Virus genome (UHGV): UHGV-0102869
Reading direction: 5' to 3' (one strand)
DNA from: a virus
Length of the DNA: 12,701 bases
Positions 4,425 to 4,482 of the stretch are shown here, piece by piece. The position numbers and the translations under genes were made by a program. The notes beneath the pieces are model-generated. The model did not search any database and was not told the DNA's origin. It saw nothing but the letters and a program-made list of their open reading frames with translations. The first letter of the stretch is position 1; the number at the start of each line of letters is the position of its first letter.

Positions 4425-4480
4425 CCCCAACAACAAGGATTTGGTTATTATGTAACCCTCCCCAACAACGATAAGGATTT
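4425..4480 (+). repeat. Direct repeat CCCCAACAAC(0-3 nt)AAGGATTT, two copies (4425-4442 and 4460-4480), each ending in an AGGA ribosome-binding-like motif followed by an ATG
   Basis: Copy 1 is followed by an ATG-TAA mini-ORF (4450-4455); copy 2 is followed by the ATG of the 29-codon ORF at 4483. Confidence 0.6.
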
Positions 4481-4482
4481 AT

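Follow-up and report, generated by a model that had tools for sequence, protein, structure and literature searches.

A direct repeat beside a prophage cargo slot as the possible image of two RNA elements on the opposite strand

Why a short motif should occur twice in front of an accessory cassette is the question raised by the viral genome UHGV-0102869, of which we analysed a stretch of 12,701 nucleotides (nt), hereafter the window, that represents a lambdoid prophage of the SfV / SfIV / e14 / CPS-53 kind. The repeats sit between the leftward early operon and the rightward accessory cassette, and an earlier note on this DNA took them for a duplicated translation-initiation module. The duplication itself is real: the core CCCCAACAAC occurs at 4425-4434 and again at 4460-4469, 35 base pairs (bp) apart as had been claimed, and the composite motif in the window reads CCCCAACAAC(0-3 nt)AAGGATT, with AAGGATTT placed directly after the core in copy 1 (4435-4442) and after GAT in copy 2 (4473-4480). 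The pattern CCCCAACAACN{0,3}AAGGATT has two matches in the window and none in 200 dinucleotide-preserving shuffles, and the repeat is far from chance. It is also longer than first noted, each copy taking in some 10 nt more on its upstream side (GGACCTGGTTATT at 4412-4424 and GGATTTGGTTATT at 4437-4449), and a third, degenerate and weaker copy, CCACAACGCTAAGGATT, lies on the plus strand at 4336-4352 inside an STnc100-like element. The answer that we favour, and that we regard as about evenly balanced between right and wrong, is that the repeat is the plus-strand image of two minus-strand RNA elements in the leader of the pL transcript, which would frame a slot for the exchange of cargo. Comparison of relatives shows that both elements are conserved, that their pairing is maintained by compensatory and wobble changes workable solely on the minus strand, and that unrelated cargo genes are swapped exactly between the arms of a long-range stem.

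The partner of copy 2 is found at the right cargo junction. Copy 2 would be the left arm of an inverted repeat (4446-4480), that is, the 3' arm of a long-range stem in minus-strand RNA, and AAUCUGGAAAUCCCCAGCACUUAACGGGAUUUU at 5263-5297 the right arm, which becomes the 5' arm of the stem in the same RNA. The arms measure 20-30 nt. Copy 2 is really some 21 nt long, AATCTGGATATCCCCAACAAC in most relatives, with the window carrying the variant TATTATGTAACCCTCCCCAACAAC plus GATAAGGATTT, and in every cargo class the sequences part ways immediately after this left arm. A second scan of IMG/VR, anchored on the boxA motif, yielded some 45 different pairs of arms, and within them left and right change together from class to class: where the left arm has AATCTTGATACC the reverse complement of the right has AATCTTAGTATCC, GTAACCCTC is matched by GTAACCCTC, and AATCTGGATGACTCTGGTC, which stands without CCCCAACAAC at the position of copy 2, is matched by AATCTGGATGACTATTGGTC. 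Even at L146, a locus without the conserved sequence that surrounds the cores in other relatives, a different inverted repeat still brackets the cargo. The arm helix comprises 12 pairs, 6 of them with double changes, and 96% of the alignment cells are paired in a partner-specific manner. When partners were shuffled, none of 2000 shuffles reached the observed pairing on the minus strand, against 24 of 2000 on the plus strand, and the arm duplex is stabler on the minus strand in 40 of the 45 classes (mean -26.7 versus -23.0 kcal/mol). Aligned as a minus-strand composite of boxA, 5' arm, linker, 3' arm and copy 1, the sequences have 96.9% of their cells in pairs, with double changes at 8 pairs (RNAalifold and pair counts); all five measures taken on this composite exceed 500 of 500 shuffles, and sliding the partner drops the pairing to 27-53%. 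The window is itself a recombinant with respect to its arms, the left being of the L035 type and the right of a type also found in L168 and L237. Their outer halves are mismatched; in the inner halves CCCCAACAACGATAAGGATTT pairs with AAAATCCCGTTAAGTGCTGGGG, and two partners are available to the right arm, copy 2 (-23.3 kcal/mol) and copy 1 (-28.7 kcal/mol).

An inverted repeat is open to other uses, and one that we consider rather unlikely is a panhandle in the plus-strand cargo mRNA, in which the 5' end would pair with the region before the terminator and stabilise the message. Both arms do lie within or beside the plus-strand transcription unit, and the plus-strand duplex is stable, with the own partner beating all but the 24 shuffles mentioned above. 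What speaks against a panhandle is the greater stability of the minus-strand duplex in most classes, together with the kind of mismatch that is tolerated: in the arms, G·U or U·G combinations on the minus strand fill 17 cells and A·C or C·A combinations, which would be wobbles on the plus strand, fill 4, the corresponding counts in the hairpin of copy 1 being 50 and 1. Moreover, the likely transcription start of the cargo would leave AATCTGG, the outer half of the left arm, upstream of it, and the adjoining hairpin is clearly one of the minus strand. The earlier note had also suggested that the repeats bind a regulator of the downstream gene; this may yet hold, but RNA structure fits better, wobble pairs being tolerated solely on the minus strand.

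Copy 1 is predicted to fold upon itself. On the minus strand, 4415-4438 would form the hairpin CCUUGUUGUU-GGGG-AAUAACCAGG with a GGGG tetraloop, of which CCCCAACAAC plus AAGG is the complement. The same GGGG-loop hairpin of 10-11 bp is predicted in 31 of 33 distinct variants, each folded singly, and in 30 of the 33 copy 1 folds more stably on the minus strand than on the plus. By RNAalifold and pair counts 98.7% of the hairpin cells are paired, double changes occur at 2 pairs, and a G·U pair is nearly invariant (36 of 38 sequences); RNAalifold also recovers the hairpin as GUUGUU-GGGG-AAUAAC together with a long-range helix. Because the hairpin recurs across the variants, the AAGGATT of copy 1 can be read as the complement of AAUCCUU in the 5' strand of the hairpin. 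No known RNA family in Rfam covers the repeats, the adjoining STnc100 being the single match.

How, then, did translation come to be suspected? The earlier note proposed tandem modules, each a Shine-Dalgarno motif with an ATG, that would jointly load ribosomes, or keep them on standby, for the downstream gene, and both copies in the window indeed have AAGGA and then an ATG. The start-stop open reading frame (ORF) ATG TAA is present at 4450-4455 on the plus strand, and ATG 4483 opens the 29-codon proline-rich ORF (MDLCVDKYEERHVPLRQKPPVPPKPPKEN), which ends with TGA at 4570-4572. For copy 2 the proposal stands. Its AAGGA (4473-4477) is spaced 5 nt from the ATG (4473-4485 on the plus strand) that opens this small ORF, which is conserved, and a genuine translation start here is plausible. 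For copy 1 it does not. There AAGGA (4435-4439) is 10 nt away from ATG 4450, and ATG-TAA follows in just 5 of 51 sequence classes (the window and the L007, L035, L064 and L094 types); the other 46 have AAGGATTCGGTTAATCTGG and no start codon. The start-stop is a by-product of the GTAACCCTC arm variant and no conserved ORF; in L007, L035, L064 and L094 this GTAACCCTC is mirrored in the right arm as GAGGGTTAC. In addition, the AAGGATT of copy 1 is variable in relatives (CAGAGTT, AAGAAAT, CAGGAAA and others) and co-varies with its partner bases in the minus-strand hairpin, and the AAGGATTT of copy 2 is cassette-specific, with other cassettes placing a different Shine-Dalgarno right after the shared CCCCAACAAC. 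The second start alone is real, and therefore the notion of a duplicated translation-initiation module is mostly wrong; that the two modules should act in tandem strikes us as very improbable. Sites for CsrA, whose consensus ACAAGGAU resembles, were set aside as well because AAGGATT is not conserved as a sequence across the variants. A Shine-Dalgarno-like AAGGA in regions of this kind can be the mere complement of an RNA stem on the opposite strand, and such motifs are to be treated with caution.

The arrangement is common. Non-conservation in related prophages had been named as grounds for dismissing the repeats, and the cores are in fact kept across relatives: both CCCCAACAAC cores occur in 1052 of 5426 complete E. 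coli genomes (~19%), usually 33 nt apart and not 35 as in the window, within a 69-nt consensus "pad" that is present in the same number of genomes and has no annotated feature on it among the matches listed. Kosakonia carries both cores too, and Mangrovibacter has a diverged version in which the identical derived change, GGATATTCC, is present in both arms. Among the complete E. coli genomes, homology to 4300-4620 ends at fixed points (4413, ~4441-4447, ~4469-4477 and 4489). In the prophage alignment unrelated sequence follows right after the second core, a different gene begins 10-20 nt on, and homology returns at ~5279-5293, just ahead of the plus-strand terminator; a second mosaic boundary lies at ~5402, where the immunity regions diverge. 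In 100 loci with both ends, eight unrelated families of cargo protein occupy the slot between the same arms.

Varied cassettes between identical junctions, with terminal inverted repeats of 20-30 bp and possibly a 4-bp flanking repeat, GTTA, are also what one would expect if the arms acted as DNA, for example as recombination or protein-binding sites (ends of a mobile cassette, invertase or operator-like sites) that are kept alike by gene conversion or by a shared binding protein, the direct repeat supplying a third site. We think this unlikely. All inspected cargo genes are plus-strand genes that begin beyond the left arm, and no cassette was recovered outside the context of arms and boxA, in a survey that did not cover inverted cargo or other loci systematically. 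The site has no linked recombinase, wobble pairs that favour one strand are unexpected for sites in double-stranded DNA, and the conserved sequence lies outside the variable part, the reverse of a transposon. Several more specific candidates were discarded: a transposon or miniature inverted-repeat element with terminal inverted repeats, as all of the 100 loci share one position in one phage backbone; an integron-like cassette array, as there is one cassette per locus, no attC-like structure and no integrase other than the prophage Int; and repressor operators, as the cI-cro region holds no CCCCAACAAC and different immunity regions accompany the module. IMG/VR yielded no match to TCTGGATATCCAGATTGTTAAAG, the pattern of an "empty site" where the arms would come together as a local palindrome.

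Several observations weigh against the minus-strand RNA explanation. The hairpin of the window itself is weak (-7.2 kcal/mol) and no better than its shuffles (z = +0.41), so that in the window support for it appears to be comparative and not thermodynamic; likewise, the window arms pair at -18 to -23 kcal/mol, where typical classes reach about -27. The sequences compared are related, so the shuffle controls overstate significance, and the structure was derived from the same alignment that was used for counting pairs. The arm duplex is also fairly stable on the plus strand, with its mean of -23 kcal/mol. SfV and e14 are without the entire module, homology stopping at 4413 and restarting at 5336, and because these functional relatives lack it, the module must be dispensable for the early-left operon of the phage as such. 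Moreover, the pL promoter, the minus-strand transcript and all interactions with factors are putative. Finally, pairing alone would allow the left arm and the GGGG loop more variation than they show, and the T with which TAATCT begins, immediately beyond the arm, never varies either. This excess of invariance suggests that the same bases have a further function that depends on their sequence, for example as a promoter or a protein site.

It is quite possible, if a little short of probable, that the repeats form a promoter and leader for the cargo on the plus strand. In this scenario copy 1 overlaps a weak -35 element, TTCCCC, and TAATCT or TATTAT before copy 2 serves as the -10 element (candidate TTCCCC-17-TATTAT in the window, 4423-4451, plus strand, the pad holding no other candidate), transcription starts inside copy 2, and CCCCAACAAC is an unstructured C/A-rich leader or standby site before the Shine-Dalgarno of the cassette. 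The plus-strand cargo ends at a true plus-strand terminator, which implies that a promoter must lie upstream of 4483, and the cassettes, beginning 10-20 nt past copy 2, leave no room for a promoter of their own. The hexamer TAnnnT is present in all 33 variants, as TAATCT in most relatives and as a perfect TATAAT with a 16-nt spacer in six (L100, L104, L167, L168, L187 and L206); its first T is invariant though it falls outside the paired arm, and the core of the left arm is far more invariant than the right arm. An overlapping promoter may explain the invariance of left arm and loop beyond the needs of pairing. However, TTCCCC is a poor -35 element and a consensus scan did not call the promoter. 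A promoter also leaves unexplained the inverted partner at the far end, the covariation and the compensatory changes in copy 1, and the L209, L191 and L226 classes replace the CCCCAACAAC of copy 2 entirely, with the right arm changing too. The promoter is compatible with the minus-strand RNA elements, and both can hold.

What could two RNA elements do on the minus strand? The right arm provides a hint, as it abuts TTGTTAAAGAGC, the plus-strand image of the boxA GCTCTTTAACAA (5296-5307, minus strand), which is of the rrn/P22/T7 consensus type and the sole exact match in the window. This boxA lies about 110 nt downstream of TTGACA-16-CATAAT on the same strand, the position of an rRNA-type boxA, and with the next bases it makes up the 17-mer GCTCTTTAACAATCTGG. 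In T7 the same 17-mer directly precedes the RNase III site R0.3 (PMC11863960), and boxA and spacer sequences of rrn operons have been described (PMC2724277). The Nus factors that gather at boxA in rRNA operons render RNA polymerase Rho-resistant (PMC8632103; PMC2724277), and boxA-bound Nus complexes have been proposed to bring the 5' arm together with the far-off 3' arm so that RNase III can act (PMC8632103). BoxA is active outside rRNA operons too (PMC5725501). Among the early-left ORFs no match to an N family was found (Pfam only, a comparison that a novel N protein could escape), which fits an rRNA-type, N-independent boxA, and no hairpin with a 5-bp stem and a GNRA-like pentaloop of the boxB kind exists within about 10 nt 3' of boxA, where the long-range arm follows directly. 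With no N-type antiterminator found and no boxB after boxA, the site is not a nut site of the lambda type. A search for a second boxA (nutR) downstream of cro gave only a match with 2 mismatches, inside cro, and a literature search for the 17-mer and the module returned the T7 sequence and general boxA papers only, in which the arrangement is not described.

We propose that these parts follow one another along the minus-strand transcript. The pL-like promoter (5445-5418) would be followed by a hairpin, boxA (5307-5296) and the 5' arm (5297-5263), then by about 800 nt of antisense cargo and the 3' arm, which is copy 2 (4480-4446). After a gap of about 5 nt in the window, or about 13 nt in most relatives, would come the GGGG hairpin, which is copy 1 (4438-4415), and then the STnc100-like RNA with its terminator, yfdP and the remaining early-left operon. 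About 1.4 kb of untranslated RNA would precede the first early-left gene, a length otherwise prone to Rho termination. BoxA may load host Nus factors (NusB/S10, NusA and NusG) as in rRNA operons, allowing RNA polymerase from pL to read through the untranslated stretch in a Rho-resistant state. The stem would loop the antisense cargo out, and RNase III may cut it, by analogy with T7 R0.3 or with the stem from which 16S rRNA is processed. Whatever its content, a cassette could then be inserted without polarity on the early-left operon, which would make the locus a "polarity-proof socket". The same DNA probably also serves, on the plus strand, as cargo promoter and C/A-rich leader.

Among the closest parallels is the rRNA leader, where a consensus boxA (GCUCUUUAACAAU, identical over 13 nt) also comes after a hairpin and is followed within a few nt by a 5' arm whose 3' counterpart lies hundreds of nt downstream, the RNA between the arms being untranslated. 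Unlike in the rRNA leader, the bracketed RNA is the antisense of accessory genes and not a functional RNA, the stem has 20-30 bp and begins directly at the end of boxA, and an additional GGGG-loop hairpin follows the 3' arm; Nus binding and RNase III cleavage are putative here. The early leader of T7 shares the identical 17-mer GCTCTTTAACAATCTGG at the start of a double-stranded RNA element, but the T7 RNase III site is a local hairpin among sense genes, whereas the prophage would have a long-range stem around antisense genes. Three T7/SP6-like contigs of IMG/VR (L203, L234 and L236) have GCTCTTTAACAATCTGG on the coding strand, then an arm of 20-30 nt whose complement occurs 190-750 nt downstream, just before the next boxA-like motif, and single small early genes are in this way bracketed by long-range stems.

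The lambda nutL/N leader, in which boxA, boxB and an RNase III-sensitive structure precede N, is similar in that boxA lies just downstream of pL with a hairpin nearby and that structured untranslated RNA stands ahead of the first early-left gene. It differs in having a boxB-type hairpin with a GNRA-like pentaloop after boxA, where the prophage has a GGGG tetraloop that is brought beside boxA solely through formation of the long-range stem; moreover, no N homologue was found here and the boxA is of the rRNA consensus type. The cargo itself resembles a moron, that is, variable cargo in a fixed slot with its own terminator, transcribed against the surrounding operon, and SfV and e14 hold different units at the same place. 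The cargo varies among otherwise syntenic phages and ends in a terminator of its own, and for a promoter of its own there is the weak candidate TTCCCC-17-TAnnnT considered above, with its TATAAT form in six variants. As classically described, a moron does not include a conserved and exchangeable "framework" such as the one here, whose ends would carry RNA structure for the opposing transcript.

Perhaps the framework is portable. We put forward, as a tentative and rather doubtful extension, that rRNA-type boxA, a stem bracketing the cassette and a GGGG hairpin make up an RNA "insulator grammar" in lambdoid prophages, of which T7-like phages would use another form. Any accessory gene could be plugged in antisense to the early operon, with Nus factors looping the arms together co-transcriptionally. 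The joining of the arms might rebuild a split nut-like signal, with boxA beside the hairpin, or make an RNase III site that excises the cargo; either way cargo would be exchanged without polar cost, and the repeat would be the conserved "socket".

The cassette presently in the slot (4483-5330, plus strand) begins with the 29-codon proline-rich ORF (4483-4572), whose stop lies 7 nt before the 164-codon ORF that starts at 4580. The latter (4580-5074) encodes a 164-aa cargo protein with two predicted transmembrane (TM) segments, matched by PHROG 6315/23697 of function unknown; no Pfam, PADLOC or NCBIfam match was obtained for it, these resources gave no function for the cargo proteins, and the PHROGs matches are labelled "unknown". 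Two more small proline-rich ORFs follow, at 5055-5183 and at 5188-5277, of which the latter is a homologue of the 29-codon ORF. The intrinsic terminator of the cargo transcript is at 5308-5336 on the plus strand, where its stem contains a U·G pair; in minus-strand RNA these bases would face each other as a C·A mismatch. The three small ORFs that flank the 2-TM protein share the core H-x-P-P/L-[KR]-x-[RK]-P-x-P. Almost all homologous cassettes have a small proline-rich ORF of this kind (motif approximately EE[RK]H.P..[RK]P.P.P.K), preceded by a Shine-Dalgarno of its own, 6-17 nt before the 2-TM gene, and the pairing holds down to 28% identity of the large protein. Small peptide and membrane protein look like a conserved cargo pair.

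Around the slot the window has the layout of a lambdoid prophage, integrated next to tRNA-Thr in close relatives. In the order of coordinates int (50-1213, minus strand), which encodes the sole integrase in the window, is followed by a xis-like gene and by yfdT, yfdR, yfdQ and yfdP (all minus strand, up to 4014), and a frameshifted "ymfH"-like stretch occupies 4029-4339. In the window yfdP and this upstream stretch form a single uninterrupted minus-strand ORF of 226 codons (3652-4332), and at the near-identical AH04 locus in RefSeq yfdP and a frameshifted pseudogene are annotated. The STnc100-like structured RNA with its terminator (Rfam RF02076; 4150-4372, minus strand) matches the family over its full length with 41.2 bits (E = 1e-7), below the family gathering score of 47. 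It lies downstream of the repeats on the minus strand and overlaps the frameshifted "ymfH"-like ORF, and this region may encode structured RNA rather than protein. A 31-nt block at 4384-4414, GCCTG(T)CTTTTCACCACATCAGGCTCGGTGG, is retained even next to dissimilar flanks (in the window and, at the 4413 junction, in L002, L003 and L146). In relatives without the pad, TTCACC-16-TATNNT spans this junction on the plus strand and by eye looks like their cargo promoter.

To the right of the cassette, a block of about 70 nt between boxA and the pL-like promoter (5336-5405; …AACGAATCA…GGCGGCTACTTCGTGGGCGTCCTGCCTGTT…) is kept in all variants, e14, SfV, Kosakonia and L146 included. The pL-like promoter, TTGACA-16-CATAAT (5418-5445, minus strand), has 11 of 12 consensus matches. 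It is overlapped by GGTACA operator-like half-sites; GGTACA/TGTACC half-sites occur at 5413-5447 and at 6176-6245, the latter as palindromes between cI and cro, and these probably serve this immunity type as oL and oR. Next in line are the terminator of cI and cI itself (S24 peptidase; 5485-6159, minus strand), and beyond cI lie operators, cro and a CP76-type cII.

Taken on its own, the repeat belongs to a conserved and previously unannotated framework around a prophage cargo slot, the parts of which resemble the rRNA leader, T7 R0.3 and the lambda N leader. If the minus-strand RNA explanation is true, it would show how a very common family of E. coli prophages hosts rapidly exchanged accessory or defence-like genes within an essential early operon that stays intact. 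It would also provide a signature by which cargo slots could be recognised, namely boxA, co-varying arms and a GGGG hairpin. The biology of boxA, Nus factors and long-range stems, familiar from rRNA operons, suhB, lambda and T7, would then extend to the insulation of cargo in prophages.

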